Source: an uncultured Nitrososphaerales archaeon (lineage in GTDB: Archaea > Thermoproteota > Nitrososphaeria > Nitrososphaerales > Nitrososphaeraceae). From it: DNA of 52,605 bases. A program made the translations under genes and the position numbers. The stretch lies in NCBI GenBank assembly GCA_963709405.1, contig CAVPXM010000016.1, positions 1-52,605 of the forward strand, read 5' to 3'. How positions within the stretch are numbered: the first letter of the stretch is position 1; each line of letters starts with the position of its first letter. Shown here piece after piece: positions 6,669 to 33,197 of this stretch. Below the pieces are notes generated by a model. It was given only the letters and a program-made list of their open reading frames with translations, was not told where the DNA came from and made no database searches.

Positions 6669-6852
6669 TATTGTTAGTATCTGAAGCTTTTGTGTTTTCC
6701 AAGATAACAATGCTCATAATTTTTTTATCATACATTAATTTGCAGACATCACGTACATTCTGGTTTTCAGTAGCTGTTATCACGGTGACGGTCATAAAGT
6801 CCGACACAGGGATCGGTTCACTGTGAGCAATGCTATTACTATTGTTATCCAT
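6669..6852 (-). pseudogene. CBS-domain protein truncated by IS630
   Basis: IPVSDFMTVTVITATENQNVRDVCKLMYDKKIMSIVI resembles the CBS protein at 32664 and runs into the IS630 end. Confidence 0.8.
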
Positions 6853-6899
6853 AATCAAATAGATATTTGTGAATTTGATATTTCTAATCTACGACCACA

Positions 6900-6915
6900 C
6901 TGCATTGCAATGCAG
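6900..6915. promoter_or_regulatory. Perfect 16-bp palindrome, putative transcription-factor site
   Basis: CTGCATTGCAATGCAG midway between two divergent CBS genes, just upstream of a TATA-like AATATATTAT. Confidence 0.6.
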
Positions 6916-6960
6916 ACATCGACAATATATTATTGTTACGCGAAGCCTTTTTGACAACAA

Positions 6961-7587
6961 ATGTATTCGAATTCATTATCCCAGAAGGCTGGCGACTTGA
7001 TTGAAACAAATTTTGCTACTCTACACGAGAACGCTAATGTTGTCGATGCAATTCGATTGATGAATGATAAGAATACATCTTCTATTATTGTCAAATTCAA
7101 AGATTCGGAAGAACCAATAGGTATAGTTACTGAAAGAGATATACTATATCGTGCCGTGGCCGAAAGTAAGGATCCGTCGAAAACCACATTAAAGGAAATA
7201 ATGAGTTCACCAATCCTTACGATCAATAAAGAGGTATTAGTAAAGGAGGCAATATCTATAATGAGAAAGGAAGGAATAAGGAGATTGGTTGTGGTAACAG
7301 ATAAAAATAAATTCGAAGAAACAAACCTATCTTTGCCTACCGACGAAAAAGGTAAAACAACCATACTCGGGGTTTTAACATTAATGTCAATTATTGGAGA
7401 ATCATCTAATCAAAGTATAAATTTGGTAGATATTGACATACCAGATTCTATAATTGCCTTGAAAAATATTGTAATCGTTTGTCCCTATTGCGAATCAAAA
7501 TTTGATAATAAAGCCGATTTGTCAAAACATATCGATAGAATTCATATCGGGGCCGGCCTACTTGAAGGAAATATGAGACAATGGTAA
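6961..7587 (+). CDS. CBS-pair protein with C-terminal C2H2 zinc finger
   Basis: PIGIVTERDIL, IMSSPILTI, GIRRLVVV; CPYC-x12-HIDRIH. Confidence 0.9.
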   Translation: MYSNSLSQKAGDLIETNFATLHENANVVDAIRLMNDKNTSSIIVKFKDSEEPIGIVTERDILYRAVAESKDPSKTTLKEIMSSPILTINKEVLVKEAISIMRKEGIRRLVVVTDKNKFEETNLSLPTDEKGKTTILGVLTLMSIIGESSNQSINLVDIDIPDSIIALKNIVIVCPYCESKFDNKADLSKHIDRIHIGAGLLEGNMRQW

Positions 7588-7713
7588 TAGTTGGTGTCAT
7601 TATAATGTGCGAGCCATCATCCGCTTGAATATTTGTAATATCTTCTATAAACAGCAATCAAGTTCGTTATCTGAACGAGTTTCATTTCTCTTAATTCAGG
7701 TTATTTTTGGTAT

Positions 7714-8622
7714 ATGATATATGATACAAACAATGCTTCATTGAAATCCATACTCTCTATTTCGATTGAAAATGCCTTTCCTGACATTTTCAAAAGGCCT
7801 CCTCTATTTGCTAACGAAAACATGCGATTGATGCAAGCAGCTTCGTTCTTCGCAATTGGACCTCAGATCTATGTAGATGGTTTATTGGTAGTACGAAATG
7901 AGAAGGGAGGAGAAGTAAAAATTATGGGAAGGATTAGTAGTAAACATATAATTCAATCTATACTTCACGCTGGCTATTCTAAATATTTAGGAATAAAATT
8001 ACACCAGATAATGGACAAGAATACACCATTTATTGAAACAAATTCACTTCTTGATGCGGCATTATGCATATTCCAAAAAACAAGATTTGCATTAATTCCA
8101 GTTACTCGAGGAGGAGCGGCAGTTATAGCGACTCTTACTATAAGGGATTTTTTACCACTCATTGTTAAGGCTCATATAGAAGCATCGATAAAGATGGTAT
8201 CCTCACCTCTGGTTTCAGTAACTAGAGATACTAATATGAGAGAAGCCCTAGATATAATGATCACAAGGAATATTAGAAATATAGGGATAGTAGATCATTG
8301 CAAAGGTAGTAAGGAGGATAGGAAAGATTCCAACTTACAATTAATTGGAATTATTAGTGATAGAAACATATTGGAATTTCTTTTGAGCACTAAGGGGAAA
8401 GAAACTATGGCTGAAAAGAGCAGTATGGAATTACAAGATATTGATATAGTCAACGCCTTCGATGTATCAGCCAAGCTGAGATTAGTTCATCCTGACGTTG
8501 GCATAAGTAAGGCAGCTGAGGTCTTGATGGACCTCAGTAATCCGTACATTGTCCTTGAAAGAGAAAATATGATAGTTACTCCATGGGATATAGTTATGAA
8601 AACCTTTGGTCTTGCATTATAA
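7714..8622 (+). CDS. Multi-CBS-domain protein
   Basis: VSSPLVSV..ALDIMITRNIRNIGIV, IGIISDRNIL, IVTPWDIV. Confidence 0.85.
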   Translation: MIYDTNNASLKSILSISIENAFPDIFKRPPLFANENMRLMQAASFFAIGPQIYVDGLLVVRNEKGGEVKIMGRISSKHIIQSILHAGYSKYLGIKLHQIMDKNTPFIETNSLLDAALCIFQKTRFALIPVTRGGAAVIATLTIRDFLPLIVKAHIEASIKMVSSPLVSVTRDTNMREALDIMITRNIRNIGIVDHCKGSKEDRKDSNLQLIGIISDRNILEFLLSTKGKETMAEKSSMELQDIDIVNAFDVSAKLRLVHPDVGISKAAEVLMDLSNPYIVLERENMIVTPWDIVMKTFGLAL

Positions 8623-9313
8623 GACACTTGGAAGGGCTGATTTTTCCTAATTTTACTCTCAGTCATAACTGTTGATTGCTTCGTAGGCCTTATAGTATTG
8701 CTGAGATGATGTGATGACTAATTAGCTTATTATCTTATTAGAGACAGGGAATAATGAGATTATAATTTTTCGGATGACTACTGTATTCCTGACTGCTTTG
8801 TAATGCAAAGCAGTCATCCAACTTAAATATTATATATCGCACCAATATTTCACCTACAATCCAAGATTGCAGCCTGTAATTATGTAATAATTATCAGATG
8901 CATTTTTGTGAACCAGTGTCGTACTTGGTAAGACAATGTGCTCTCAAAATCTGGTAAATATAACAAAAGCAGGCTGCATATTCTCATTTCTTAGGCAACG
9001 CATTGTAATTCAGACGAATTTATAAAAATGTAATGATATCCATAATCTTCTATTATCACACATTTCAAATTGATATGCTTATATTTGTCTACCATCACTA
9101 GACCTATTCACATTATTATATACTTACATTATATCCTGTGGTAAAACATGAATTCTAGTTATAGGTATTTGTCGGATTCTGTATTTCTTTTGAATGGCGA
9201 TTGTTTGCAATAAGAACAAGCCGTCCAGTTAATTTAAATATGTTCTTATTTCATTGAATGGCACTGAATTCATACTGTTTAATAGCCAGCATTTAATTCG
9301 AACAACACCTTAG

Positions 9314-10732
9314 ATGAGTATTAACAAAAAGGATAGCACCGATCATGCTAGGTATGAATTTAGATATACTGATAAATATGATATATTTTCAACCAAAAAA
9401 GGCCTCTGTGTAGAAACTATTGAAGAGATGAGCCAGTCAAGAAGAGAGCCTTACTGGCTAAGAGAGTTTAGGTTGAGATCCTATGATGTCTTCATCAACA
9501 AATCAATACCAAATACGGTTTGTGATCCATTAAAAATAGATTTTCAAAATATCTATTATTCTGCGGCGTTTGAAAAGGAAGACATAAAATTGGACTATGG
9601 TGGGTTCTCTACGGATAAGTCTCAGGTTCCTATAATTACACAAAGAGAACGAGAGTCATTTATTGAGACAGATACTCAAAATGACACTGAGGCAGTTTGC
9701 CATCATTTGAGCGAAAAACTTCAGAAGATGGGTGTAATATTTGTCGACATGGATACTGCGATAAAAAACTATCCCGAACTTTTCGAAAAACATTTTGGAA
9801 GGGTAATTCCACCTGAAGATAACAAGATCGCTGCATTAAATGGAGCTATCTGGTCGAGTGGTTCATTTATGTACGTTCCTCCTGACGTAAAAGTTAGCTT
9901 TCCAGTATATTCGAATTATAGAATTAATATGGAAAATACTGATCAGTTTGAAAGGAATCTTATAATTGCAGATGAAGGATCAGAAGTTCATTATATCGAA
10001 GTATGTCCTTCACGAGCTTACACTCGTACCGTAGGATCGTTGCGTTCTCTAGCTACAGAATTAATTGCAAAAAAATGTGCTAAGATTAGATACACTGCTA
10101 TCCAGAACTGGAGGAAAGATGTCTATAATCTGGTAGCAAAGAGGGCATATGTATACGAGAATGCAACGGTTGAATGGATAGATGGAAGCCTTGGGAGCAA
10201 GCTTACCATGGAGTGCCCAAGCATATATTTGCTTGGAAGAAATGCTATTGCAAAAATAGTATCATTAGCTTTTGCTGGTCCCGGTCAGCATCAAGATGTT
10301 GGTGCAAAAGCAGTACATTTAGCCCCGGATACTACATCTAAGATTGCAACTAAATCTATCAGCAAATCAGACGGAAGAACTACATTTAAAGGCTTATTAC
10401 ATATCGGTAAGGGTTCTATACACGCAAAAGCAGATATTCAATTTGATGCTCTCATTTTAGATGAAAATTCAGGAATTAACGTTTATCCATGTATTGAAGT
10501 TAATGAAGAGAATAGCATTAGCTCTTATGAATCTGTTATTAGAAAAGTCGGTACAGATCAAATGTTTTATCTTATGAGTAGAGGATATTCGGAATCTGAT
10601 GCACTTTCGATGATTGTGACCGGATTCATAGAGTCATTTATGAAGGAATTGCCAGTGGAATGTGCAGTTGAGCTAAGCAGATTTATTAGGCTAGAATTGG
10701 AAGGGAAATCCAGCAGCATTAAAGCTGACTGA
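9314..10732 (+). CDS. sufB: Divergent SufB-like Fe-S assembly protein (lone paralog)
   Basis: EPYWLREFRL, IPPEDNKIAALNGAIWSSGSFMYVP, QFERNLIIADEGSEVHYIE, GQHQDVGAK, FYLMSRG. Confidence 0.85.
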   Translation: MSINKKDSTDHARYEFRYTDKYDIFSTKKGLCVETIEEMSQSRREPYWLREFRLRSYDVFINKSIPNTVCDPLKIDFQNIYYSAAFEKEDIKLDYGGFSTDKSQVPIITQRERESFIETDTQNDTEAVCHHLSEKLQKMGVIFVDMDTAIKNYPELFEKHFGRVIPPEDNKIAALNGAIWSSGSFMYVPPDVKVSFPVYSNYRINMENTDQFERNLIIADEGSEVHYIEVCPSRAYTRTVGSLRSLATELIAKKCAKIRYTAIQNWRKDVYNLVAKRAYVYENATVEWIDGSLGSKLTMECPSIYLLGRNAIAKIVSLAFAGPGQHQDVGAKAVHLAPDTTSKIATKSISKSDGRTTFKGLLHIGKGSIHAKADIQFDALILDENSGINVYPCIEVNEENSISSYESVIRKVGTDQMFYLMSRGYSESDALSMIVTGFIESFMKELPVECAVELSRFIRLELEGKSSSIKAD

Positions 10733-11400: not shown

Positions 11401-11652
11401 CTCACCACTGCAAATAGCAGCACTAACTTTATAATTAGCGAATATGTTGTTCATATTATTCTTGATTGATTTTGGGAAGCTATTTAGAGTAGCTATGCCA
11501 AAAATTTAATCTGAATATATATTCTTTATATTTACTTGATTACCATGATGCTACTCATTCATGTCTTTTGCAGATTCTAAAATAGACAAACCCAAGTCAG
11601 TTAATTTAACCTTGCTATCTAAGAAGTTATAAAAATAATAGTCCCTGCAACC

Positions 11653-12183
11653 GTGCAAAAGTTAGATAAATCCGTCCATAACGAACAGTCATGGCCTCTC
11701 ACGGAATCTCAAAATACATTGCTGGCTAAGTTTGAAAAGATTAAAAAATTGTCTAGACCATATCTTTCATCTGAAAGGATAGATCTCATATTAACAAATC
11801 TTGCTCAACGGGTTTTCTATGATAGTGGAAACGATTTGTGTGTAGATAAATATCTAGAGGAATTACGCCAAAAAATAAACCAAAAGGAGGTGTTTGACCA
11901 TCTTTCACCTTCAAACAGACCAATGTCTAGTACAGGTATTTCAGAACAGCGGATGCAACTAGGGTCAGTTGACAACCCTTCTATTCGAGATCTGCATCAA
12001 GCCGCTAGGATAAAGTTAGCAGAAATTGAAAAAGTATTGACTCCTTATTACCCTGAAACATTTGTAAGGAATGTAATTACAGGATTGACTAAGCAATATA
12101 CCATAACAGGAGATCGCTCTATTCTCGATGAGGCATTAGAACGTCATAGAAGGAATGTAAAATGGTATACTATGCGTAACTAA
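11653..12183 (+). CDS. Hypothetical protein with an internally duplicated helical unit
   Basis: 176-aa ORF containing two similar ~55-aa segments. Confidence 0.6.
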   Translation: MQKLDKSVHNEQSWPLTESQNTLLAKFEKIKKLSRPYLSSERIDLILTNLAQRVFYDSGNDLCVDKYLEELRQKINQKEVFDHLSPSNRPMSSTGISEQRMQLGSVDNPSIRDLHQAARIKLAEIEKVLTPYYPETFVRNVITGLTKQYTITGDRSILDEALERHRRNVKWYTMRN

Positions 12184-12454
12184 TACTCCTTTGCATTGTT
12201 TGTTAATTGATTGGCGAGATCTGAATGAGTGCGGCGACATTTGGATTCATCATGGGTTTTGTATTGGGCATAAAGAAAGTCTGATAACAGAATGATTGAG
12301 GAGCTGTTCTTTTAACGGTACTTTACTTAAGATGATAATCTGGATTAAGTACTGCCATTCTTCGTCTTCAGGACAGAATTGTAGTGGTGTATGGTTCTTA
12401 TCAGTAGATTGACTTGCGCAGCAGTGCTCAAAATGATATGACCTTTTAGATTAA

Positions 12455-13359
12455 GAGCCTATCCCAAAATTGTCCTTCTAGATGATGATACAACAAGATA
12501 AGTGTACCAAGAAAAGATTGTTCTGCGATTTCTTTTCATATCTGACGAACAGTTTTCTGAACTTATTATACCAGGAGTTGTTTCTCTCTACAACACATCT
12601 TCTAGAATTATGATGACTGCCTTTCCTGATTGCTCATGCAGACTTCCTACATCTATATCAAATATTGGATATGTATCCTCTTTCGATAACAATATTATAT
12701 TCAATCTCTTTAGAATCAAATCCTTTGTCAACACAGAAAGAGATTTTGAACATCTCTATGCAAAGATTGTCTATTTATTACTTTTTTTGTCAAGAGCTTC
12801 TGTTGTACTCTTCACATCGTGTGTATTAGCAGCAGTAATAACAACAGATAATGGTATACGATCTTGATCTGTGAAAAAATGACGTTTTGTCCCTAACTTA
12901 CCTTTTCTATCTGTAGAATAGCGCCAGCCAGTCATTTTCCCCCTAATGGTGCTTTTATAGATACACTACTATCAAGTGATTGCCATTTCCATTGAATGCC
13001 TACTAGATCGTCATATCCTTTTAGCAATCTAATCCATAGTCTTTGAAATACCCTAGATGTGGACCACTGTTGGAATAGTTTATGACATGTCGAACCAGAA
13101 AGACCCATATTCTTTGGACAACATCTTCACATTCGCACCCAGTACTTAACATATAAAGAATACCATCCAGGAGTACCTTCCTATATGATACTACTGGACA
13201 TCCGATAGTGTGGTTTTTCTGAGGGAAGTATCAACCTTATTTTATTCCATAACTCATCGGGATTCTTTTGACAGTTGGAAGGCATTTAACTCTCGTAAAA
13301 CCACACTTATGAATAGGAAAATCACAAGCTATATGTCTATCTATTTTTGGGATGGGTTC
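12455..13359 (-). mobile_element. IS5-family element (IS427/IS1031-like), degenerate
   Basis: Ends GAGCCTATCCCAAAA / TTTTGGGATGGGTTC match the copy at 36448-37342; broken transposase (GILYVLSTGC..GSGSTCH..GTKRH). Confidence 0.85.
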
Positions 13360-13432
13360 TTAACCTAGATGGTAGAAAGACTAATTACGGATTTTCTTTA
13401 GCCCAAGAATTCGGAACTATCATGGATCATAT

Positions 13433-13843
13433 CTATTTTGCAATAACTACTGTACACTTAGCGTTGTGAACAATCTTATACGATGTACTCCCTAACAGAA
13501 ATTCCTGTAACTCATGAGGTCCTCTTCTTCCGATTACTATTGTATCAACTCCTTTAGCATCGGCCAATTGCAAGATTTGGGCAGCAGCACTAATTCCTCG
13601 AAGCTCTATTGTAGTTATAGAAGCTAGTCCTAACTTTTCAGCCCTCCTGCGATATATTTCTAAGAGCTCTTTACCCCGTCGTTCCAATTCCTTCGAAATT
13701 GAATATCCAACATTACTAAATTCTTCAAGCACGTTAACGATTAGTAAATTCGATTCACATCTGGAAGCAAGGAAAATTGCATATTCGAAGGCCTTATCGG
13801 CATATTGAGAACCATCAATCCCAACTAAAATCTTTGACAACAT
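13433..13843 (-). CDS. Universal stress protein
   Basis: KILVGIDGS, DTIVIGRRG..LLGSTSYKIVHNAKCTVVIAK. Confidence 0.95.
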   Translation of the reverse strand: MLSKILVGIDGSQYADKAFEYAIFLASRCESNLLIVNVLEEFSNVGYSISKELERRGKELLEIYRRRAEKLGLASITTIELRGISAAAQILQLADAKGVDTIVIGRRGPHELQEFLLGSTSYKIVHNAKCTVVIAK

Positions 13844-13924: not shown

Positions 13925-14326
13925 AGCTGATGGAAACGAGCAATTATGTGATTCTGCAAGATGGCCCGGTATCACAGTTGATGGTGGTTTTCTGAGTACA
14001 TTCTGGTAGATTCATATCGATTCTTAATTAAGACAGAAGAAGATGAAAGCAAATCTAAACTAAGCATAGAAGAATTAGCCCCTCTTGTTGACGCTGGTCT
14101 TATGTCTTATAGAGCAATCAAGAAAATTAGGCAAATGCTCGGCCCTAGTAAAGCTATAGTCATAATGAGAATAGGTGGTTTAGGGTATTATAGCATACAA
14201 TATGCAAAGATATTAGGACAAACAGCTAACGTAATAGCTCTTGACAGACAAGATGAAAAACTTCAACTTGCCCAAACCGTTGGCGCAGATTTCACTGTTA
14301 ATACCTCAAAATACCATATATCATAA
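13925..14326 (+). pseudogene. Zn-dependent alcohol dehydrogenase fragment
   Basis: GNEQLC..WPGITVDGGF..EELAPLVDAGLMSYRAIKK..IGGLGYYSIQYAK; frameshifted and truncated. Confidence 0.75.
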
Positions 14327-14552: not shown

Positions 14553-16891
14553 TTACAATACTCCGCCTCCACCTTCACCGCGTCTCATAGCCCCTACTGT
14601 AGGTGTTGGCCTACCAAACTGTTCAGCTATTCTCTTATACCAATTTAATTCTTGATTTGATAGCGGTCTAATCTTTTTCATCGCTTCTTCAAAGTGTCTC
14701 ATATATAGCTTCATCTCCTTTGAATGTTTTTTTGCTTCGATAGGATCTTGATACTTTGCTATGTGTTCTCGTAAAGCGAGCATTACGGCTGCCGCTGCAA
14801 ATGAAGCAATATCGGCTCCAGTATATCCTTCTGTAATGTCTGCTAAGTGCAGTATATTAACATCTTCTGCTAGCGGTGTTTTCTGGCTATGGATTTTAAT
14901 TATTTGAAATCTTGAGTCACGATCAGGAGGAGCAACATAAAGTACCCTGTCGAATCTTCCTGGTCTCAATAAAGCAGGATCTACTATGTCAGGTCTGTTT
15001 GATGCCGCTATAACAACTACACCTCTCAATTCTTCTAGACCATCAAGTTCTGTCAATAATTGGCTGATTACTCTTTCAGTGACATGAGAATCTCCAAAGT
15101 CTCCTCCCCTCACCGGTGCTATGGCATCAATTTCATCAAAGAATACAAGGCAAGGGGCAGCTTGTCTTGCCTTTCTGAACACTTCTCGAACGCCCTTCTC
15201 TGATTCTCCAACCCATTTTGAAAGTAGTTCGGGTCCCTTTATACTAATGAAGTTGGCCTGACTTTCGCTTGCTACGGCCTTTGCTAGCAATGTTTTACCT
15301 GTACCCGGCGGCCCATAAAGAAAGATGCCCTTTGGTGGAATCGCACTAGCTTCTGAAAACAATTCTCTATATTTTAATGGCCATTCTAGTGCCTCAATTA
15401 ATTCTTGTTTAATATCGTCAAGTCCTCCGACATCTCTCCAGCTTACGTTGGGAATTTCTACAAAAACCTCTCTCATTGCAGATGGTTCCATTTCATTTAT
15501 TACTTCCATAAAGTCTTCCATCGTAACGTTTATCTTGTTCAAAATCTGAACTGGAATGCTTTCTTCCGAAAGGTCTATCTCCGGTAGCACCCGTCTCAGT
15601 GCACGCATAGCTCGCCTCCTTCGTTAATGCTTGTAAATCGGCTCCAACAAATCCATGAGATATGTCTGCTAATTTTTCAATATTGACATCACGAGCTAAG
15701 GGCATATGGCGAGTATGAATGTGCAATATCTCCAATCTACCATTTCTATCTGGGACACCTAGCTCTATTTCTCTGTCAAACCTTCCGGGGCGCCTTAATG
15801 CTGGATCTATTGCATTCACTCTGTTTGTTGCACCGATGATCACCACCTTACCTAGTGATGATAGACCATCCATCAAAGACAAAAGTTGAGATACGACTCG
15901 TCTTTCAACCTCTCCTGTTACCTCTTCTCTCTTGGGGGCTATGGAATCTAGTTCATCAATAAATATTATCGAAGGAGCGTTTTGGTCTGCCCGTTGAAAT
16001 ATTTCTCTCAAATGTGCTTCGCTTTCACCGTAGAATTTGCTCATTATTTCTGGTCCGCTTATTGCGAAAAAGTTTGCATTAGTTTCGTTTGCAATAGCCT
16101 TGGCAAGTAATGTCTTACCAGTACCTGGAGCACCATGAAGTAATACACCTTTAGGAGCTTCAACTCCTAACCTTTTGAACAACTCAGGATGGCGTAAAGG
16201 GAGCTCAATAATCTCTCTTATTTTCGTAATCTCATCCTTAACTCCTCCAACATCCTCATAAGTGACAGACAGAAGTCCTTCCTGTTTGGATAAACCTTTC
16301 GCTATCTCCTCAGATACGACTATCCGTGTAGAGTTTGTAATTATGAGAGATCCTTTTGGTGGATTAGTTGAAACTACCATCAAATCAACTCTCTGTCCCA
16401 TTATGCCCAGCGGGACAATATCACCCTTCGTTACAATCTGGCCTTGCAGCACCGCGGCCAGATATTCTTCTGCTCCCACGATTCTCAGTGGCTCTGTAGG
16501 AGCAAGAGTAATACTCTTAGCATTTTTTGCTTCTGCCTTTCTAATTTCTACCTTGTCGTCAATACCTACATAAAGTCTATTTCTTATGTAGCCGTCTAAT
16601 CGTATCAATCCTTTGCCATAATCTTGTTCGTATGCAGGCCAGTTAAGAACGGAAGTTTTTGATTTTTCTGAACTAATCTCTATGACATCACCAGCCGAAA
16701 GACCTAATTCTTCTGAAATCTTTGGATCGATCCTTGCAACTCTTCTCCCAACATCCTTAGAATTAGCTTCAGCGACCTTTAAGCTAGTTTTCTCAGTTGT
16801 ACTATCATCACCGTTACTAGCGCTTCTCTTATCACCTGGAGTGTTAACGCCGCCGGTATTATTACTTCCCGTGCTTTGTTGCGCGATTCAT
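14553..16891 (-). CDS. cdc48: CDC48/VAT-family AAA+ ATPase, two apparent 1-bp insertions (~16887 and 15613)
   Basis: N-domain [19 protein letters not shown]; two AAA modules ([13 protein letters not shown]; [13 protein letters not shown]; RPGRFDR); removing the two extra bases restores a single ORF. Confidence 0.9.
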
Positions 16892-16918
16892 TATGTTGTA
16901 AGTGATATTTATTTGACC

Positions 16919-17872: not shown

Positions 17873-18013
17873 AACTTCCCGCATTCAAACTACAGATTCT
17901 AATCGCAGAATGATTCATAAGAATTATGGACGCAGCGCATTGCACAAATCACTAACAAGATAAGTTCACGTTTTATCTCAAATTTGGTGCTATTATAAAG
18001 TGATATATCGTTA

Positions 18014-19110: not shown

Positions 19111-19300
19111 CTATACTATGTAACAATAGTATCAGACGTATGCATCAGTATTTATTACAATATAACGTAGACAATAAACTAAATGATTCTCCTTTGTTCC
19201 TGACCTCTGTCAATGAATTCGGTTTAATCGTCGTGTGGAGGTGTTTATATTATTGATTCTATTCCGTAGATCTTCTTTCACATCACATCGCGCTTCAAGC

Positions 19301-19460: not shown

Positions 19461-19524
19461 TGAAGTGCATTGCAGAAAGTTCTTTCTTATTAAATACACA
19501 ATGTCAGAAATCAAATTATAGAAT

Positions 19525-23479: not shown

Positions 23480-23674
23480 TTGTTAGATGTATTTTCTAGA
23501 AAACATCTTGTTAAAAATATGAAAAATGATTATTCTGATATAAGGGCATCAATTTACACAAGCATGAAATGCATCTATAACCCAGTTGTAGAACAGCCCA
23601 TTATTGTAGACATAAATCGACAAGTACCGAATGAGATTGCAGAGAAATTTGCAAGAGAGTTATTATCAAGATGA
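23480..23674 (+). pseudogene. Possible C-terminal remnant of an AAA_33/gluconate-kinase-like protein
   Basis: SDIRASIY..PVVEQPIIVDINRQVP directly upstream of the COG2187 gene; weak. Confidence 0.35.
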
Positions 23675-23680: not shown

Positions 23681-24697
23681 ATGAGTCCTTTACAGCAGGA
23701 AAAGGTGATAGCAGGCCTTAGAACAGAAAATGCATACCCTCACAAAATATCAAAAATTGTTGTTGAAGAAACACACATCTCATGGATATTTCTAACAGGC
23801 TTATATGCATACAAAATAAAAAAGAGCATTAAATTTGGTAAAATCCTTGATTTTTCATCACTAGAATTCAGAAAAATTTCCTGTCAAAAAGAAGTCGAGT
23901 TAAATAAAATTCTTTGTGGTAATATGTATAAGGGAGTTGTGAAAGTTGTTGGAAAAAATGGTAATAATATAATAAGAATTACTAACCTGGAGCATAAGGG
24001 GAAACCTCTAGAATATGCTGTTAAAATGAGAGAGATTCCACAACAATATCGTATGGATAATCTTCTATTGATAGGAAAAGTTAACTTAAGAACTATCGAA
24101 AGGTTAGTTGGAATTCTGCATAAATTCCATCTTCGTACACGAACTTCTGTAGAGATCAAAAAGTACGGCAAGCCAAAGTTCATAAAGGAGAAAATAAAAG
24201 AGAATTTTGATACAATTGCGAAATTTGCAAATGTTGATCAGAAGCTGGAGAAAATATTAATTACTTTTGTCCAAAATAACAATAATTTATTTCTTGATAG
24301 GATTCATGAAAATAAGATTCGCGATATACATGGTGACTTGCATTTAAAAAATGTCTTCATCCTACAAAATAGGTTCTATCTATACGATAGAATAGAGTTT
24401 AATGATCCCTTGAGATATGCCGATATTGCAGAAGACGTGGCACATCTTTCCATGGATCTTGATCATCACTATAGAACAGATTTTAGAAAATATTTCATTT
24501 CTCAATACATAAGAAAAAGCAACGATCTTAGTCTAGAAAGGGTAGTCTACTTTTGGATGTGTTATAAAGCATGTGTTAGGGCCAAGGTTTCGCTTTTTCA
24601 TGCGAAAAATGAAAAAGTCGTTAAAAAGAGAAGTAGTTATAATAATGAAGCAAAAGACCTATTTATACTTGCAAACTCCTATATCGAATTTCTATAG
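23681..24697 (+). CDS. APH/kinase-like phosphotransferase (COG2187, Rv2004c N-domain-like)
   Basis: ETHISWIFLTG..AYKIKK..LDFS, EVELN, EYAVKM, DIHGDLHLKN, DRIEFN, YKACVRAKV. Confidence 0.88.
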   Translation: MSPLQQEKVIAGLRTENAYPHKISKIVVEETHISWIFLTGLYAYKIKKSIKFGKILDFSSLEFRKISCQKEVELNKILCGNMYKGVVKVVGKNGNNIIRITNLEHKGKPLEYAVKMREIPQQYRMDNLLLIGKVNLRTIERLVGILHKFHLRTRTSVEIKKYGKPKFIKEKIKENFDTIAKFANVDQKLEKILITFVQNNNNLFLDRIHENKIRDIHGDLHLKNVFILQNRFYLYDRIEFNDPLRYADIAEDVAHLSMDLDHHYRTDFRKYFISQYIRKSNDLSLERVVYFWMCYKACVRAKVSLFHAKNEKVVKKRSSYNNEAKDLFILANSYIEFL

Positions 24698-24805: not shown

Positions 24806-25438
24806 CTACCAAGACGTTATAATATCATTTGTATTCATAATCTTTGCACCATAAAATCGTCTAATATATTCTAAACCTGAATTGTGTTCTTCTTCTGTAA
24901 ATGCATCCACTCCATCATCGGGCACTATTAATTCAAATCCCCTAACAAATGCATCGTACGATGTATGTCTGTCACAGATATTGGTGTGTAGGCCTGTTAT
25001 GACTAACGTATCAGCACCCTTGCCATTATAAATTCCTTTAAGGGCTTTATCCAATCCTGTTCCGTTAAATGCGCTATACGTTCTCTTGGTAATAATATAA
25101 TCTGTGTCTGACGGTTTTAGTTCATCTATTACTTTAGCTCCTTCAGTATGTTTCATGGCATGAGGACCCCATAGATTCATCTCATAAGTGTCAATCGGAA
25201 GATGCTCATCAATGCAATAAAAAACTGGTATCTGTTTTTGTCTTGCAGTATCAAGCAGGATCTTTATATTTGGTATTATTCGACCAGCTCTTTCACATTT
25301 AAGTTTGCCTTTGACGAAATCATTTTGCATATCAATTACTAAAATTGCATACCTATGCTGCTTCCTATCTTCAGATTTATTTCCAAAACCCATCTCAGCT
25401 GTCTCTTTCGTAAGATCTTTTTCTACTTCGTTCGCCAA
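24806..25438 (-). CDS. pncA: Isochorismatase-family cysteine hydrolase, nicotinamidase-like
   Basis: IDMQNDF, DEH..WGPHA, KRTYSAF, GLHTNICD; adjacent to NAPRTase. Confidence 0.75.
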   Translation of the reverse strand: MANEVEKDLTKETAEMGFGNKSEDRKQHRYAILVIDMQNDFVKGKLKCERAGRIIPNIKILLDTARQKQIPVFYCIDEHLPIDTYEMNLWGPHAMKHTEGAKVIDELKPSDTDYIITKRTYSAFNGTGLDKALKGIYNGKGADTLVITGLHTNICDRHTSYDAFVRGFELIVPDDGVDAFTEEEHNSGLEYIRRFYGAKIMNTNDIITSW

Positions 25439-25864: not shown

Positions 25865-27284
25865 TTAGTCAGGTCTGAAATGCTGAGTTATTGCCTTCAG
25901 CTTTTTGCTAAATGTTATTGGAAATCTTTCTGGCAGAAATTCTAAACTCTTAAACTTTGTGGGAAGTAAATTTAGTTGCTGTATATGATATCTTTGAATC
26001 TCTACAATTGAGGGCAGTTTACGCAAAAGCTTTCCTTTATCAAATAATTTTACCAATAACGGAACTCCTGGACCATCAAGAATCTCCTTTTCCCCCTCTA
26101 ATGCCAGAATATCTTTTTTTATTTTATCATTTTTTATAATCCTAAGTATTTGTTTAGGGCCAGGATAAGTTTTCTTTCCTGAGCTAGTTTTCATCTTATA
26201 TAATATTTTATCATGAATGCTCTTTTTCTTACCTATTTCTGAAACCTGATGTAATTTTACAGCAACTAATTTATATACCCCATTCATGACCGGATCATCT
26301 CTTGATGTGCTAAGCTCAGTTCCGACTCCGAAAGAATCTATAGGAGCATGCATATCAATGAGATCACTTATCACATATTCATTTAAATCTCCTGTTGCCA
26401 TGATCTTGGTCCGGGTATGGCCAGCATTATCAAGCAATCTTCTGGATTCTGTACCTATTTGAACTAGGTCTCCGCTATCTAACCTTATACCATATATATC
26501 AATTCCTAAGTTGATTATTTTTTTTACTGCAGCAATACTATCATAAGTGTCAACTAACAAGAAGCCAGTAGGGAATACTTTACTGAACTGATTAAATGCG
26601 TCCTCTTCTCGTTCAAAACTCATGACAAATGAATGAGCCATTGTACCAAATACCGGTATCCCTAGCTTATATCCGGCAAGTGCATTTGAAGTTCCGACGC
26701 ATCCTCCTATATAGGCGAGCTCTAGCAGCCAAAAGTCCCGCTTGCGGTCCGTGAGCTCGCCTAGAACCAAATTCTACGACGGGTTTTCTTCTCGCTGCGG
26801 TAACTATTCTTGATGCTTTAGTTGCTATTAGACTTTCGAAGTTTATGATCGATAGGATATATGTTTCAACTATTTGTGCTTCAATCATAGGTGCTTCTAT
26901 CCTTATGATTGGTTCATTAGGGAAAAGAATTGTTCCTTCAGGAACTGCCCAAACAGTACCTGTAAATTTAAATCCCTTTAAATATTCAAAAAAATCTTGC
27001 TCAACGTATTTGAATGTTTCAAGAGATTTGAGATAAGAGATTTGCTTATCATTAAACTTCATCTTCATTAGGAAATGTATGGCTTGTTCGAGACCAGCAA
27101 CCACAAGATATGATCTGTTCGCCGGTAGCCTTCTGATAAACATTTCAAAAATTCCCTTCTTTTTTATACTCTTCTCGTTACGACTAGAGTGATAGTATGC
27201 AGCAGCCATAGTTAGTTCATATAAATCAGTGGCTAGCGCAATATCTCCTCCATGATCTGACTCTGAGATTAACAGTCCTTCCAA
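25865..27284 (-). CDS. pncB: Nicotinate phosphoribosyltransferase, one apparent 1-bp insertion at 26717
   Basis: TDLYELTM, EFGSRRAHG, GTMAHSFV, LVDTYD, GIRLDSGD, FGVGT, GVYKLV across ORFs 26667-27284 and 25865-26770. Confidence 0.92.
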
Positions 27285-28349: not shown

Positions 28350-28595
28350 CTACTTTTCAATATTCTTCATATGAAGAATACCTCTATCCGTTGTGGTATA
28401 GATGTGTTGTAGTTCATCATAATGTAATAATCTCTTATCTATTAGCTCTGCAAAACATCTTCGCAATTGTGCATGTGATATAGAGGGTAATCTATCTATT
28501 ATTCCTCTTTTCGTGATCCCGTTTTTAGACACCTCGAGTATATCTAGGAGAACTGTTGTACTGGTATCGGTGTTCTTTGTTGATGCATTTGTCAT
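28350..28595 (-). CDS. Small winged-helix DNA-binding protein (HTH_45/COG3432-like)
   Basis: DILEVSKNGITK..ISHAQLRRCFAELIDKRLL..YTTTDRG. Confidence 0.8.
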   Translation of the reverse strand: MTNASTKNTDTSTTVLLDILEVSKNGITKRGIIDRLPSISHAQLRRCFAELIDKRLLHYDELQHIYTTTDRGILHMKNIEK

Positions 28596-28789
28596 TACCT
28601 TAATAATTCACCAATCTTTATTAGCATAACGAAATCTATAAACCAATTGTTTTCAACGTAATGCACTGCATCTGTTATTATGAGAATTATTAGTGAATAA
28701 CAATATGCTTCTGTAAAGAATGTGAAATGGGATTATTATAGGTAATAGTCTAAAGCTCTTCTATTATTTTTTAATTCGATATGCTCTTT

Positions 28790-29097
28790 ACTGGATTGCA
28801 GTTCTACCAAGATTTACTTTATCACACAAAATGAATTAGATCTCCTCTACCAAAACGTATATCGACGACTACTTCACCTTTCCGGATATGCGCAAACTTT
28901 ACCGTGCACCACAACCCACTCCGAGAATAGAGAATTTGGATAGAATTCAAATCATCGACATCATAACCAATATATTTCACAATTTGAAGCGATGACATCA
29001 TTGAACTGTCACTATTACTGCCACCATCGCAGCATTAGGTAGGCACATCACAACTTCTGAAGGAATTTTCAACTAATGTAATCTTTTCATATCTCTC
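28790..29097 (-). pseudogene. Arsenite-methyltransferase-like N-terminal remnant
   Basis: Frame-broken IGYDVDDLNSI..ILGVGCGA..KFAHIRKGEVVVD. Confidence 0.6.
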
Positions 29098-29607
29098 ATT
29101 TACTTTCCATTTAATTACATTTCTTTCAATTATTCTCATCTTATTTATCTACTGAATAGCCCACTATTGTTTCCTTTCCAAGTTTCTTCCTTAACTTAAC
29201 AGCAACTTCATCAGGTAGTTTAGAAGGCCCTTCTCTTAGGCCTATTCTCCAGTCAATACCTCCTTTACGATATCATGAAAGCCACAAAGTTCACATTCTG
29301 CTTCTGTGTAGCTCCTTTGCAATATATGTTGGGGGATCCGTTATCACTCTCAACTTAGAGCACAAGTCGTAATCTGGCATGAGATTCCTTCCTACAGAGC
29401 CTCTAATTCTCCTCTACTTACCAAGATTCAAAAGAGCAGATCAATGAACAAAGCTATATCTCTTCCTGTACAAAATATGACAATTTCATCAATAACAAGT
29501 AACTTATTTGTCTTAATTGATGGAAGTATCCCTTATTCAAGTTATGATTTATGAAGAGTGTGACTCTAGGACACAGGGTAACTAATATCATTCCAAATAA
29601 ATATACC

Positions 29608-30829
29608 ATGGCCAAACGCACAGGATTATGGACAGGAGTCAATAAAAACGAGCTACAAGATATCACTTGGATTATTTGAGCTTGTTAGTTTAGGTATTGG
29701 AGGTACAATTGGCTCAGGAATATTCATTGTTCCTGGCATCGTAGCCGGAATTGCTGGACCAAGTTCAATATTTGCCTGGCTCTTTGCTTTAGCATCTGCA
29801 TCATGCGTAGCGTACGCACTAGCAAAAGCTTCTTATAAGTATCCCTCAACTGGTGCATTCTATTCTATCTTTTCAATAGTATTTAGCAAGAAAATTTCAT
29901 TGATACTCGTCTTTTTATACCTCATCTCGGTAGTAGTTGGAATTGCCGCAATTGCAGACGGAATAGGACAATACTTCTCTTTTTTTGGATTTCAACATGA
30001 TCCTTTTGTCATCCTATTAGTTGAGATTATTGCGATTTTAGGCTTCTGTGCAATTAACATAAAAGGAGTACTTTTATCAGGAAAGACTGAAAATGTATTG
30101 ACAATAGCCAAGATCGCACCTCTAATTATCTTGGCCATTCTTCTAGTTCCTTATATTCATGAAAGTAATTTTTCCCCCTTTTATCCATCTTCAAGAAGTA
30201 CTGATTTTCTAAAAGCTTTGGTGATTGTTTACTTTCCTTTTACAGGTTTTGAAATAAGTGCTATACCAGCCCAAGAGACAAGAACTGCAGAAAAAATAGT
30301 ATATAGAGCGATGAGAATGACAATGATTATTGTAGGATTTGTATATATATTTTTGAACATTTCACTAATTGGCGCTACTGGTAGCAAAGTCCTTGCGAAC
30401 TCTCCGGCTCCTCTAGCTACGGCATCAGGATTGATCTCTAAAGAATCGCAAAGTATAACCGTTATAATTGGAATTATTGCAATGTTATCTGCAGTAAATG
30501 CATACATGCTGGCAGCAGCGAGAGTACTACAAAATGTTTCCTCTTTATTTAATTTACGTACCTTAAGAGAATTATCCTCAAGCGGCACTCCTGCTATTGC
30601 TACAATACTGGTCACATTAGCAGCTTGTACTTTAGTACTATTTCTGTCGCACAATTTTGAACAACTGGCCAGTATCTCTGTCATAGCGATATTAGTAGTT
30701 TATATTTTCGTCTGCGTGTGTGCATACAAAATTTTTTTAAACGATACTACTACAAGACTCATTGCATGTATAGGTGTGCTATTAACATCCACAATTCTTG
30801 TCGTTTACTTTCTCTTGAAAATTCAATAG
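29608..30829 (+). CDS. APC-family amino acid permease, 5' frameshift near 29660
   Basis: LGLFELVSLGIGGTIGSGIFIVPG, YPSTGAFY, FTGFE in frame with ORF 29900-30829; the ATG at 29608 is one base out of frame. Confidence 0.85.
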
Positions 30830-31723
30830 CCTACCATTATTACTAAATAGCACAAACTTGCACAAATTAATAAATTCGGTGTATCCGGAATCCAGTTAAT
30901 CTGGCTGATTTATAATGGCATATCGACTTAATTTAACTGGATAATATGCCGTTCTGTTTAAACGATTCTTTACGCCACAGTAACTAGTAAGAGCAGCTTT
31001 GATTCTGATTTCAATAACATATACATAATGTGAAATGTGCATTCAGGGAACATTTCTTTGAAACTATTTGGTCTTATATAATATTGCTATTCATGATATC
31101 GATTGAGAGAACTTGAGATAATACTGATAATGGTTCCTGTTATGGCAAATATGATTGAGTCCCAGCATTTAAGAACCAGCCTATAAATAGCATTCATATC
31201 CCACTTAGGAATGAATCACTGGTTCTTATTAAAAATCAAATGCCTTAAATTCGTACGATATAGATATGGTTATTCCAACTTTAAGTACTATGTCTTTTGT
31301 AACCTTATCGTAATCTTTTCCTCAATGCAGCATGATAGTCTGCCGACATCTGAAGGAAGGCTGGTAGGAGATCAAATGTACCAAGTATCATGTTTATGAA
31401 AACAATGTAATATGGAATATCGGTGGTGTTTTAGTATCATGATAGAAGATCTATGGTAGTAAGAGGGATAGTGAATTGATTTACAAGTCCACCAAAATAG
31501 TGTGAAAATGCCAAAGAGTACAAAATTCATTAACTGACCTGCAAATGATATCTTAACTTCTTTCCTAATCCATGTAGGTATATTAAGGCCGAACTGAGAC
31601 TGCAGAAACCAAATTCGCGTTTCTTAACGATGCATTGCAAATCCGACCAGTACATTGTAATGATTTCAGCCTTAATACGTATAGTGTATAGTGCATTTCA
31701 TAAGCAAAATAAAACATTAGTGG

Positions 31724-32206
31724 CTATCTAACAAGCAAGACAGAACAATGAGCATGCTGGACTACACCATTTGCCACACTTCCAGTCAAGAATCTTTTCA
31801 GTCCAGTTCTTCCTCTTGTTCCAATAACTATTAGATCTATATCCTTGTCAGTAGCATAGTCTATAATAGATCCTATAATAGATTTTACATCCGTGAAAGT
31901 CTCAGTGTTTAACTCTGCAATATCTTCATTCCTTGCCATATCCCTCACTTTCTTAAACCAAGATTGAGCTTTCTCTTCTAGATCTTTAAAGTACTGATCT
32001 ATTGCAGGCGGAGAACTTGTATACCCGTAGGGTACACTACCTATAACATGAATACAAAATAGCCGTGCATTCTCGTCCTTTGCAAGCTTTATTGCATACT
32101 TAGCCGCATTTAAGGAGCATTCTGAGCCATCTATTGGAACAAGTATGTTTCTTATCTGTATTTTACAATTATTATGATTAGCTGTCGGTCTTACATCTAC
32201 TACCAC
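31724..32206 (-). CDS. Universal stress protein
   Basis: NILVPIDGS, DLIVIGTRGRTGLKRFLTGSVANGVVQHAHCSVLLVR. Confidence 0.95.
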   Translation of the reverse strand: MVVDVRPTANHNNCKIQIRNILVPIDGSECSLNAAKYAIKLAKDENARLFCIHVIGSVPYGYTSSPPAIDQYFKDLEEKAQSWFKKVRDMARNEDIAELNTETFTDVKSIIGSIIDYATDKDIDLIVIGTRGRTGLKRFLTGSVANGVVQHAHCSVLLVR

Positions 32207-32663
32207 ATTGATTTAGTATCTCGATATCATGATAAATCTATTGTAGATGTTTATATGGCTAATGTTCAGTATGTCTATATGTCATGTACAATGTCTTGCA
32301 TAATATTCCAGTATTTCAGTGGGCCAGAAGTTCCTCTTTTAATGTTTCCAAAATCGATTCCATTTAGTTAACACGCAAAGATAAGCAGCAATACATAGAC
32401 CGTATAAATGAGCAACTAACTGGACTTTAATACTATCAAGCATATTTATAAAGTTGTTATATGTTTTGGGAAAACCGAACCTAATTATTGTTTATAGCTA
32501 GAGAACTAATATTAATAGTAGTCCAGATAATCGTTAATGATGATTAATTATTATCTCCAATTTTTCACATATTGCAGGTTCAACTATAGTAAAGGTATGA
32601 TATTATATGCACTGCCATGCACTATGATCCAAAATGTAATATACTGTCAACCGTATTACTCGG

Positions 32664-33197
32664 TTGATGAGCTTCGAATCGATTCCAGTATCAAGCATTA
32701 TGACTAAGAAAGTAATAGTCCAAACTGAAGATCAAACCATTCAGGCAATTTCTAGGACCATGTATGAAAATAATATCGGTAATGTACTAATAGTAAGAAA
32801 TGATGTAGCACAAAATAGCACTAAGAACCAAAATAATATTGTAGGCATCATTACTGAAAGGGATGTTGTTCGAATAGTAGGTTCATTTGATCAAACTTTG
32901 TATCATACCCCGGTACGTGAGCTAATGAGTAAGCCCATAATTAGCATAACACCAAATAGTTCACTTAAGAATGCTATAGACACAATGCAACTGAAAAACA
33001 TAAGAAGACTTCCAGTAATTGAACAAGAAGGAAAACTAGTAGGTATAATCACTGCCAGGGATATATTCAAAATAATAATTAAGAGCCAAGATACTATATC
33101 TACTTTTATAAGCAGCGATTTAGTGCCACATCCCGGCGAGTTATATGAGAGATTCAGTCAATATTGGTCTGAGGAAATTTTGCACAAGAGACCATAA
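32664..33197 (+). CDS. CBS-pair protein
   Basis: VGIITERDVV, LMSKPIISI, NIRRLPVI, GIITARDI. Confidence 0.93.
   Translation: MMSFESIPVSSIMTKKVIVQTEDQTIQAISRTMYENNIGNVLIVRNDVAQNSTKNQNNIVGIITERDVVRIVGSFDQTLYHTPVRELMSKPIISITPNSSLKNAIDTMQLKNIRRLPVIEQEGKLVGIITARDIFKIIIKSQDTISTFISSDLVPHPGELYERFSQYWSEEILHKRP

Follow-up and report, generated by a model that had tools for sequence, protein, structure and literature searches.

Positions 6669-33197 of contig CAVPXM010000016.1 (C16), from an uncultured Nitrososphaerales archaeon, are best read as a rearranged copy, invaded by insertion sequences (IS), of a stress island that is conserved in part of the family Nitrososphaeraceae and that would hold an energy-limitation regulon marked by a common promoter element. 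We hold this reading with moderate confidence. The element, a palindromic TGCA repeat here called the TGCA-box, is new, and it is common to island genes that encode CBS-domain proteins, universal stress proteins (USPs) and a polyhydroxyalkanoate (PHA) synthase (PhaC), among others. The window, i.e., the whole stretch of DNA that was analyzed, is the entire contig (52.6 kb, ~35% G+C), and the genome (G000) has 4.83 Mb in 100 contigs. An earlier note, made from the sequence alone, had proposed one dormancy and energy module at this place resembling the DosR regulon of Mycobacterium tuberculosis and the lxa locus of Burkholderia cenocepacia. Overall that interpretation is partly supported.

The TGCA-box consists of two to four TGCA units at 5-base spacing. 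It came to light through a repeat search, first at position 6901. Within the window it marks the promoters of CBS_ZnF (a CBS pair with a zinc finger), of the divergent genes CBS177 and USP2 (a CBS pair and a USP), of PhaC, and of wHTH, a small winged-helix protein; in orthologs, USP1 and CBSx4, a protein with four tandem CBS domains, are boxed as well. A TATA-like box lies 7-15 bases downstream of the TGCA-box in the examples that we read, and the gene begins ~40-70 bases downstream of the TGCA-box, with the starts of open reading frames (ORFs) taken from a simple caller. The sites in the window are as follows.

6896-6914: TGCA-box in the promoter region between the divergent CBS187 remnant and CBS_ZnF, with exact TGCATTGCAATGCA at 6901-6914
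8794-8812: two overlapping TGCA-box-like sites, with two mismatches each, between CBS302 and SufB
19461-19474: TGCA-box with one mismatch, 51 bases upstream of PhaC
28657-28670: TGCA-box, with an exact double at 28662-28670, 62-67 bases upstream of the wHTH gene
32608-32621: TGCA-box with one mismatch in the divergent USP2/CBS177 promoter, 43 bases upstream of CBS177

Nine bases downstream of the 6896-6914 site is a AATATATTATT box. Across nine orthologous CBS_ZnF promoters, one of them from another genus, the GCATTGCAnTGCA block and an AATATA box are invariant while the flanks vary. The site orthologous to 32608-32621 is exact in a related genome (G032), and an intact PhaC paralog on contig C21 of G000 has an exact box 54 bases upstream. 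All eight window sites with up to two mismatches to the triple form are intergenic and fall within 6.9-32.6 kb; mononucleotide shuffles of the window gave a mean of 1.6 sites and a maximum of 7. Exact triple boxes number nine in G000 against 0.46 expected. With one mismatch allowed, there are 36 sites genome-wide versus 4-19 for twelve control words (four other scored words, TTGC, GCAA, CAAT and ATTG, gave 16-45 and overlap the box in another phase). Thirty-three of the 36 are outside ORFs of at least 150 aa, and such ORFs make up 43% of the genome.

The box is also tied to particular gene families. We scored 16 palindromic 4-mer-N-4-mer patterns for matches 15-150 bases upstream of CBS, USP or PhaC genes. 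TGCA-N-TGCA hit seven distinct targets from 30 upstream matches, compared to 0/87 for eleven G/C-containing patterns and 9/393 for four AT-only patterns. When the window is left out, four targets remain among 26 matches (p 0.002): a CBS gene on C20, a USP and the PhaC paralog on C21, and a 4xCBS gene on C70. In all, the box marks promoters on at least eight other contigs of G000. Its other strong sites precede genes for a CoA-transferase (adjoining a CBS gene), flavodoxin-like proteins, multicopper oxidases, small AbrB-like proteins and PGA_cap. Two proteins of 56-65 aa with a GRIYVP-W-G motif are encoded at C46:11744-11941 and C5:25562-25732, 36 and 141 bases downstream of strong boxes. From the motif we take them to be AbrB/SpoVT-like, and they may be additional regulators of this circuit.

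Gene families in the window were called by Pfam and NCBIfam scans, and CBS loci by a six-frame Pfam scan. The gene content of the region and its left border is as follows.

5596-6665, plus strand: IS630-type transposase (HTH and DDE_3, two ORFs; Pfam)
6694-6858, minus strand: truncated CBS-pair gene (CBS187 remnant, ~62 N-terminal codons kept; Pfam CBS E 1.8e-4)
6961-7587, plus strand: CBS_ZnF, a CBS pair and one C-terminal C2H2 zinc finger (Pfam CBS 3.7e-21, zf-C2H2 0.0029)
7714-8622, plus strand: CBS302, 302 aa, with a single confident CBS domain (Pfam)
9314-10732, plus strand: second, divergent SufB without adjoining sufC or sufD (TIGR01980, 473.6 bits)
11653-12183, plus strand: 176-aa ORF, family not recognized by Pfam/NCBIfam
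13433-13843, minus strand: USP1, universal stress protein (Pfam Usp 5.1e-27)
14102-14326, plus strand: zinc alcohol dehydrogenase (Zn-ADH) fragment, 74 codons (Pfam ADH_zinc_N)
14553-16870, minus strand: CDC48/p97 AAA+ ATPase, broken (Pfam)
16872-17873, plus strand: IS5-type insertion sequence (Pfam DDE_Tnp_1)
18039-19098, plus strand: broken paralog of a CBS-module and HPF-like protein, Hib/HibA/AHA type (tblastn pieces against a frame on C22)
19525-20871, plus strand: PhaC-like PHA synthase, class III type, GYCWGG box (TIGR01836 1.1e-95, below cut-off)
21755-22630, minus strand: CBSx4, four tandem CBS domains, Sri/CM-type module, 291 aa (four Pfam CBS stretches)
23510-23656, plus strand: P-loop kinase remnant, last 57 codons (tblastn with the 170-aa kinase of genome G016)
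23681-24697, plus strand: APH-like (COG2187-type) putative kinase (comparison with relatives)
24806-25438, minus strand: PncA-like isochorismatase-family hydrolase (Pfam 1.8e-42)
25865-27284, minus strand: PncB (NAPRTase; Pfam)
28350-28595, minus strand: wHTH, small winged-helix protein, 81 aa, HTH_45/Sso10a-like (Pfam/NCBIfam)
29900-30829, plus strand: amino-acid permease, N-terminally truncated (Pfam AA_permease_2, profile positions 79-397)
31724-32206, minus strand: USP2, universal stress protein (Pfam Usp 1.1e-34)
32664-33197, plus strand: CBS177, CBS-pair protein (Pfam CBS 2.5e-27)

The clearest example of such an island is in G031, a complete 2.83-Mb genome of another genus, in which all 13 exact triple boxes lie within 29 kb. 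The island there (1,579,134-1,609,535, ~30 kb) has 13 triple and seven double boxes, and for at least 11 of the 13 triple boxes a called ORF starts no more than 70 bases downstream. Gene names in this and the other genomes come mostly from BLAST against G000 proteins or from reading the N-terminus. The members of the G031 island are as follows.

CBSx4, 54% identical to CBSx4 of the window
A second 4xCBS protein
Full-length Zn-ADH, 361 aa, 55% identical to the window fragment
CBS302-type protein (G031:1588430-1589251), 38% identical to CBS302 over 274 aa
PhaC, 54% identical to PhaC of the window
Four USPs
Amino-acid permease, 448 aa
Divergent CBS177-type/CBS_ZnF pair, with a box between both genes
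Several more CBS proteins
Multicopper oxidase
Hsp20, with a box 40 bases upstream
PII-like protein
PAC2, adjoining a thermosome gene
2x[4Fe-4S] ferredoxin
Hemerythrin
VIT1 iron transporter

The window is a reshuffled counterpart of this island, and its ADH fragment, truncated permease and truncated CBS gene are relics of island members. The box together with the same families in G031 supports a single, putatively co-regulated module. The APH-like gene, its linked kinase, PncA/PncB, CDC48 and SufB were not found in the G031 island by BLAST. Because no box was found in front of them either, APH-like, PncA/PncB, CDC48 and SufB look like lineage-specific additions to the neighborhood. A second dense case is G054, where at least ten of 22 boxes are within 28 kb around a CBS_ZnF gene.

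Elsewhere in the family the box keeps to similar genes. Five genomes of the same genus have 1-15 exact triple boxes each (0 for a reversed-pattern control). A further 20 exact sites were read in three of these genomes. CBS genes begin 42-49 bases downstream of eight of them, and behind others are GAPDH-like, FAD oxidoreductase-like, Zn-ADH/quinone oxidoreductase-like, phosphoribosyltransferase-like and SHMT-like genes, names that were read from N-termini. Three of the four exact sites in G032 and G016 were examined, and all three are before CBS-like genes, while one site in G034 is upstream of a gene of unrecognized family. In other genera the box is also found before Hsp20, multicopper oxidase and PII-like genes and between PAC2 and thermosome genes. 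Exact triple boxes occur in 25/46 genomes of the family (the 46-genome tallies include the unpublished G050, and no statement rests on it alone) and in 1/55 genomes outside it. That single outside site is a four-unit exact TGCA repeat (G030:C1:1392811-1392829).

The earlier note had counted eight CBS genes or remnants along with a gene like CBS-HPF, a fusion of CBS domains to an HPF-type ribosome factor. The six-frame scan gives six CBS loci in the region (6694-6807, 6991-7311, 8197-8385, 18229-18366, 21767-22600 and 32688-33080), the fourth of which is part of the broken CBS-HPF gene; the count was too high, but the clustering is real. In G000, 72 CBS-domain matches merge into 31 CBS loci, and there are 22 full-length USPs. 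The region is the densest 26.5-kb CBS/USP stretch of the genome, with eight loci (six CBS and two USP). In 2000 random placements, which counted 32 CBS loci since one C22 gene was split in two, the maximum was five and the mean 2.8, and none reached eight. Smaller groups exist elsewhere in G000: a USP, CDC48 and a 4xCBS gene on C70, a CBS_ZnF-like gene adjoining a 4xCBS gene on C33, Zn-ADH, Hsp20 and a CBS gene on C42, and a USP 5 kb from PhaC on C21.

The synteny comparison that the earlier note had called for revealed conserved clustering in relatives. In G004, a compact core of 7.5 kb contains a 187-aa CBS gene, CBS_ZnF, USP1, the ADH fragment, CBSx4, APH-like (broken in G004), wHTH, USP2 and CBS177. 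Relative to this core, the window has extra blocks: CBS302-SufB, CDC48-IS5-CBS-HPF-PhaC, PncA-PncB and the permease. In G002, CBS, CBS_ZnF, USP1, the ADH fragment, CBSx4 and PhaC share one contig, and another contig has CDC48, APH, PncA, a decayed PncB and wHTH. The remaining three of the five same-genus genomes examined (G001, G005 and G006) show parts of the same gene orders. Order thus varies between genomes of one genus. USP1 orthologs, 80-88% identical, are found in the same place in six same-genus loci, and the ADH fragment is retained as a fragment in same-genus loci. Conserved neighbors in the genus and in G032 include the APH-like kinase, PncA/PncB, CDC48 and the second SufB.

To look beyond the genus we used the APH-like gene as an anchor. 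It is present in 17/46 family genomes and in 0/55 genomes of other families of the order. The DNA around it was compared at 13 loci from eight other genera, and eight of these loci (seven genera) have CBS or USP genes, the nearest 0.1-5 kb away; the background is 8.6% of random ±5-kb windows in G000. Two of the remaining loci have wHTH only, and three, all on contigs shorter than 20 kb, have none of these genes. The wHTH gene also adjoins the APH-like gene in G041 and G057. In G016 the kinase, APH, CBS_ZnF and CBSx4 all point in one direction. CBS_ZnF-type genes occur in 32/46 family genomes and close CBSx4 homologs in 22/46. The two are within 17 kb on one contig in G031, G013 and G049, and adjacent in G016, on contig C3 of G032 and on C33 of G000. 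In a genus that has neither the TGCA-box nor CBS_ZnF, two four-CBS genes stand head to head (G007:C1:1357224-1359069 and G048:C1:319281-321105). These pairs are reminiscent of the paired genes of the Sri system.

CBS_ZnF is the best candidate for the factor that binds the box, since the box tracks its phyletic distribution and its own promoter has the best-conserved box. Of the 32 family genomes with a CBS_ZnF-type match, 24 have the box, versus 1 of the 14 without such a match (Fisher p 4e-5, a value that overstates the support, as the genomes are related). Outside the genus, 13/14 genomes with a close ortholog (E <1e-38) are boxed. This link is one of co-occurrence and is not proof of binding. 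The finger has the form C-x2-C-x12-H-x4-H, with C174, C177, H190 and H195 invariant in 28 sequences, within an invariant tail, CPYCxSxFxxKxxLSxHIDRIH-GxGLLEGDxRxW. Among PDB sequences, classical C2H2 fingers that bind DNA resemble the last 70 residues, with E-values down to 4.8e-5, and the zf-C2H2 Pfam score of 18.4 is under the cut-off of 25.2. In the AF2 model, a third of which is low-confidence, the CBS pair is well predicted and the tail forms a hairpin (172-181) and a helix (184-201) at pLDDT ~60-72. The tail fits the classical C2H2 pattern and, in the predicted structure, the beta-beta-alpha fold. In public annotation the protein is only a "CBS domain-containing protein", and PF00571 is the sole domain in 120/120 homologs listed. 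The wHTH protein was tried as the regulator and set aside in favor of CBS_ZnF, as it was not found in the G031 island by BLAST. We tentatively suggest, as a possibility short of an even chance, that CBS_ZnF is a novel energy-charge-sensing transcription factor that binds TGCA-N repeats and switches on a hibernation island (CBS modules, USPs, Hsp20 and PhaC) in soil ammonia oxidizers.

A mechanism can be sketched from these parts. A single transcription factor would use the box as its operator, and its regulon would be the boxed genes. CBS pairs and USPs are adenine-nucleotide-binding modules. The CBS pair of CBS_ZnF could couple DNA binding to the adenine-nucleotide level, and the regulon would make the cell ready for a shortage of energy. 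Ribosomes would be silenced and shielded by the four-CBS (Sri-type) and CBS-HPF (Hib-type) proteins, the protection of proteins would fall to USPs and Hsp20, and carbon storage to PhaC. What sets the program off may be a lack of ammonia, low oxygen, heat or another cue, and any link to oxygen is a matter of conjecture. We infer energy limitation because CBS and USP proteins bind adenine nucleotides, because CBSx4 aligns with a Sri chain, and because hibernation roles have been published. In archaea that are stationary or depleted of energy, ribosomes are both silenced and protected by Sri proteins and by CBS-HPF fusions such as Hib, HibA and AHA (PMC13004131, PMC13324472, PMC13728122, 10.64898/2026.01.19.700304). 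A divergent SriC clade is reported mainly from Nitrososphaerales (PMC13004131), Hsp20 has been tied to energy stress in ammonia-oxidizing archaea (PMC13674081; 10.1101/175141), and a PHA synthase was acquired by the ancestor of ammonia-oxidizing archaea (PMC7554672).

CBSx4 resembles the published hibernation factors. It has four tandem CBS domains in 291 aa, as expected of Sri-type proteins (~270-340 aa). Its residues 18-286 align over the full length to 14-279 of chain 6 of PDB 9ZNI (E 7.2e-21), the M. acetivorans 70S-SriC-SriD structure; chain 6 is taken as SriC by elimination, chain 7 being also in the SriD-only entry 9ZNG. Since MJ1225 outscores chain 6 as a match (89 bits), the subfamily of CBSx4 is not settled. 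Where M. acetivorans SriC has its long, positively charged small-subunit-binding loop (positions 191-225), the alignment places a loop of comparable length that includes an RRR run. Most Nitrososphaerales SriC homologs have a shorter, less charged loop (PMC13004131). No second four-CBS gene that might serve as a sriD-like partner adjoins 21755-22630.

The CBS-HPF-like gene of the earlier note exists, but only as a broken copy in four tblastn pieces. These are in at least three frames and cover aa 18-433 of a 434-aa frame on C22, so an intact CBS plus HPF/RaiA protein is absent from the window. The C22 paralog is intact, with three Pfam CBS stretches and a sub-threshold PF02482 match (19 bits; cut-off 23.7). 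This was the one match, itself sub-threshold, in a genome-wide HPF family scan, and the window copy was found only through the C22 paralog. No same-genus orthologs of the broken gene were found in the four genomes sampled; the best relative, in G032, is 75% identical over the HPF part. The PHA synthase of the earlier note is a class-III-like PhaC with GYCWGG and ~150 extra N-terminal residues; its TIGR01836 score (320.6 bits) is below the cut-off of 365.3.

The COG2187 phosphotransferase of the earlier note is a putative APH-like kinase. The protein itself has no Pfam or NCBIfam match, and a PDB sequence search gave one chance-level match. It has an HGDLHxxN motif and 31-34% identity to bacterial APH+AAA_33 fusions (PF01636; PF13671); relatives are named "aminoglycoside phosphotransferase family enzyme" by JGI, and one homolog carries PF01636. 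The linked P-loop (AAA_33-type) kinase is fused in the bacterial homologs, a separate gene in other genera and a 57-codon remnant in the window. Its 170-aa form is directly upstream of the APH-like gene in seven loci of five other genera. In G000 the two have decayed in a complementary manner, with an intact APH-like gene and a kinase remnant on C16, and an intact kinase and an APH-like remnant on C50 (68807-69560).

Of the other members of the earlier list, the two USPs, the PncA and PncB pair and the Zn-ADH fragment were confirmed by Pfam/NCBIfam, with PncA only PncA-like (a weak match only to nicotinamidase PRK11609). The lone SufB is indeed a second SufB without sufC or sufD neighbors, 56% identical to the sufB on C63, which adjoins sufD. 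PncB and the APH-like gene are single in G000 (for APH-like, the sole intact copy), while there are extra copies of SufB, CDC48 (four other paralogs) and PhaC (the intact paralog on C21). A 1.7-kb segment that includes the 176-aa ORF (11647-13363) is duplicated at C21:95955-98134 with 84-88% DNA identity. Positions 12455-13363 match relatives at 72-74%, yet have no long ORF in the window, and may be another broken gene.

Damaged genes and mobile DNA are features beyond the earlier list. The damaged members in the window are CDC48, CBS-HPF, one CBS gene, the permease and, in the G000 assembly only, PncB. The end of IS630, a type with copies on ~20 contigs of G000, replaces the 3′ part of the neighboring CBS187 gene. 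In the ORF at 6481-6858, the C-terminal 60 codons match other IS copies on more than ten contigs; the CBS187 ortholog in G004 is a 187-aa ORF (L001:10181-10744). CDC48 was confirmed by Pfam, but it is frameshifted by one extra base at 15612/3 (+1) relative to the intact 778-aa gene of G002 and cut by IS5. This IS, which has copies on 35 contigs of G000 and is flanked by 8-base direct repeats (16864-16871 and 17874-17881), cuts CDC48 off from its in-frame start codons, and these are reached only in the IS-free allele. PncB is split by one extra base at 26717 (+1) relative to the intact G001 and G006 genes, and the permease has lost ~80 N-terminal profile positions. The ribosome-storage and proteostasis functions that the earlier note gave to the module are not supported for this copy, with both CBS-HPF and CDC48 broken in G000.

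Near-identical DNA is found in contigs from other public soil runs (20/24 listed runs; 12 studies), and we compared four runs. The extra base in PncB is absent in 3/3 other runs that cover the site. The wider population therefore has an intact PncB, and the frameshift in G000 may have arisen in assembly. The extra base in CDC48 is absent in run X5 and kept in X8. The junction without IS5 is present in runs X5, X8 and X19; the insertion is recent and polymorphic. One X5 contig is without 18408-19223, within and after the CBS-HPF copy, which is decaying. At 29435-29471, shortly before the truncated permease, contigs from two DNA runs part from the sequence of the window, which suggests another polymorphic insertion or deletion. 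RNA-library contigs from two libraries of one soil study match CBSx4, PncA/PncB, the permease, USP2 and the IS-free CDC48/CBS-HPF junction at 95-99% identity. Identical copies of several USP genes and of one TGCA-box locus are found on differing contigs (C31/C50, C41/C42/C50, C33/C34, C5/C77), and the assembly may contain duplicated or strain-variant stretches that slightly inflate some counts.

Several points weigh against the reading of the region as a conserved island with a boxed energy-limitation regulon. The resemblance of families, the clustering and the shared box speak for one module, but the window scan found no box before the APH-like, PncA, PncB, CDC48 or SufB genes. The box was discovered from this window, and its enrichment is partly circular; related genomes and paralogous promoters are non-independent samples. 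Several of the G006 and G001 sites are near-identical duplicated promoter-gene cassettes. The double form, TGCANTGCA, is not over-represented in the genome (92 vs ~101 expected), so many isolated double sites are probably due to chance. Eight genomes have a CBS_ZnF-type match and no exact triple box, mostly with a match to a more distant paralog. The authors who described the divergent Nitrososphaerales SriC clade left it aside, since its function may differ (PMC13004131). With CBS-HPF and CDC48 broken, the island is decaying at least in part. The RNA-library contigs show presence only, not level, strand or induction, and could stem from DNA carry-over.

The main rival is that the same island and box serve a general regulon for proteotoxic, heat, redox or metal stress, in which CBS and USP proteins are accessory sensors. 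This would fit Hsp20, the thermosome, PAC2, CDC48, the oxidase, ferredoxin and hemerythrin about as well as energy limitation does. The G031 island has Hsp20, PAC2 with the thermosome, multicopper oxidase, ferredoxin, hemerythrin and VIT1; boxes in G000 precede multicopper oxidase and flavodoxin-like genes, and CDC48 is in the neighborhood. The Phr heat-shock regulon of Pyrococcus combines hsp20 with an AAA+ ATPase. We consider this rival rather unlikely, though a serious contender. The commonest box targets are CBS-domain and USP genes, whose ligands are adenine nucleotides. Homologs of the four-CBS and CBS-HPF proteins hibernate ribosomes under energy limitation (PMC13004131), and Hsp20 is cited as an energy-stress marker in ammonia-oxidizing archaea (PMC13674081).

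The region could also be cargo of an integrated or decayed mobile element, with the cluster held together by descent and transfer rather than by joint function. In integrated elements of 20 thaumarchaeal genomes, a USP (arCOG02053) and three CBS arCOGs are among the top 20 arCOGs (PMC6563490). The contig has seven or more IS-type loci for transposases or integrases, from various families (starts: rve 2379, IS630 5596, IS5 16956, IS4/5 36502, IS481-like 39857, IS3-like 42352 and IS1595 44062) and, outside the region, a weak integrase-like ORF (Phage_int_SAM_1, 46393-47670). The APH-like gene is patchy, and gene order differs within the genus. We nonetheless regard a pure cargo origin as improbable. 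No tRNA genes were found in the window, no long direct repeats were found flanking the region, and no integrase is at its borders. The ISs are recent, polymorphic insertions into pre-existing genes, the box is also on other contigs, and the island families share 38-55% protein identity between genera, which fits long vertical residence. A mobile-element history would be compatible with co-regulation. Beside the rve-type integrase gene, outside the region, is a 26-codon USP-like remnant (3152-3229; sub-threshold, 22 bits). Lastly, a chance aggregate of the large CBS and USP families in a gene-poor, IS-rich stretch is highly improbable, for all the abundance of such loci in the genome and the five listed members that are broken or truncated, given that no random placement reached the observed density, that the neighborhood is kept across genera and that a cis-element is common to its genes.

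Among known systems, the layout of the island appears closest by analogy to the lxa locus. That ~50-gene cluster has six USPs, alpha-crystallin, storage-polymer synthesis, alcohol turnover and electron-transfer genes, a short inverted repeat at 17 intergenic points and a few loci elsewhere, and synteny that is partial and reshuffled in relatives (PMC3721108). The G031 island has its dense boxes in 30 kb, four USPs, Hsp20, PhaC, ADH and ferredoxin. The lxa motif is TGA-N6-TCA (Fnr/Anr-like) rather than TGCA at 5-base spacing, and CBS is not mentioned in the accessible text of the lxa paper (PMC3721108). Low-oxygen induction and a deletion phenotype were demonstrated for lxa, whereas a low-oxygen response of the present island is conjectural.

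The overlap with DosR is real at the level of families, but it should be seen as analogy and not orthology, the proteins being distantly related at best. The families in common are USPs, Rv2626c (CBS pair), Rv2004c (COG2187), Rv0573c (NAPRTase), Rv0079 (ribosome factor) and Rv3130c (storage-lipid synthase) (PMC5309233), and DosR promoters carry tandem boxes (PMC3177182). The DosR system is bacterial, occupies nine blocks and uses a two-component response regulator and a different box, whereas the candidate regulator here is a CBS/zinc-finger protein. The DosR regulon also has alpha-crystallin and ferredoxin members, both with counterparts in the G031 island. Induction by hypoxia is established for DosR and is a mere possibility for the island.

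The likeness to the Sri/Dri/Hib factors lies in the four tandem CBS domains, the full-length similarity of CBSx4 to a Sri chain, the CBS and HPF-like gene (broken in the window) and the clusters of CBS modules (PMC13004131, PMC13324472). The published operons hold four-CBS genes only (sriABCD, CM-5/4/1/2), whereas here a single four-CBS gene is found among CBS pairs, USPs and PhaC. A shared promoter box and USP neighbors go unmentioned in the accessible texts, and "universal stress" is absent from the available text of three CBS-hibernation papers. Thaumarchaeal integrated elements resemble the region in that USP and CBS genes, their commonest non-mobility cargo, co-occur in accessory, rearranging DNA (PMC6563490). 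They differ from it in that the region is without a bounding integrase or att site, that families and box are kept across genera, and that the box also occurs outside the island. The published copper-limitation promoter motifs of N. viennensis were considered for the TGCA-box and ruled out, as both differ in sequence. We found no description of the island or the TGCA-box in openly searchable literature, which leaves out subscription journals and supplementary tables. Some of what the earlier note proposed had been published before, namely CBS-module hibernation factors in archaea (2026) and USP/CBS mobile cargo (2019, PMC6563490).

Soil ammonia-oxidizing archaea endure long spells without substrate or oxygen. 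Archaeal CBS-module hibernation factors were described only in 2026, and the Nitrososphaerales versions were left unassigned. The island supplies a list of genes (CBS modules, USPs, Hsp20, PhaC, ADH, ferredoxin and others), a DNA motif with which any genome or metatranscriptome can be screened and a candidate sensor-regulator, so that entry into and exit from dormancy become directly testable. If CBS_ZnF does control the island as suggested, these archaea would have their own equivalent of the DosR and lxa programs, made from different parts. Box-bearing transcripts could mark the energy state of nitrifiers in situ in soil.

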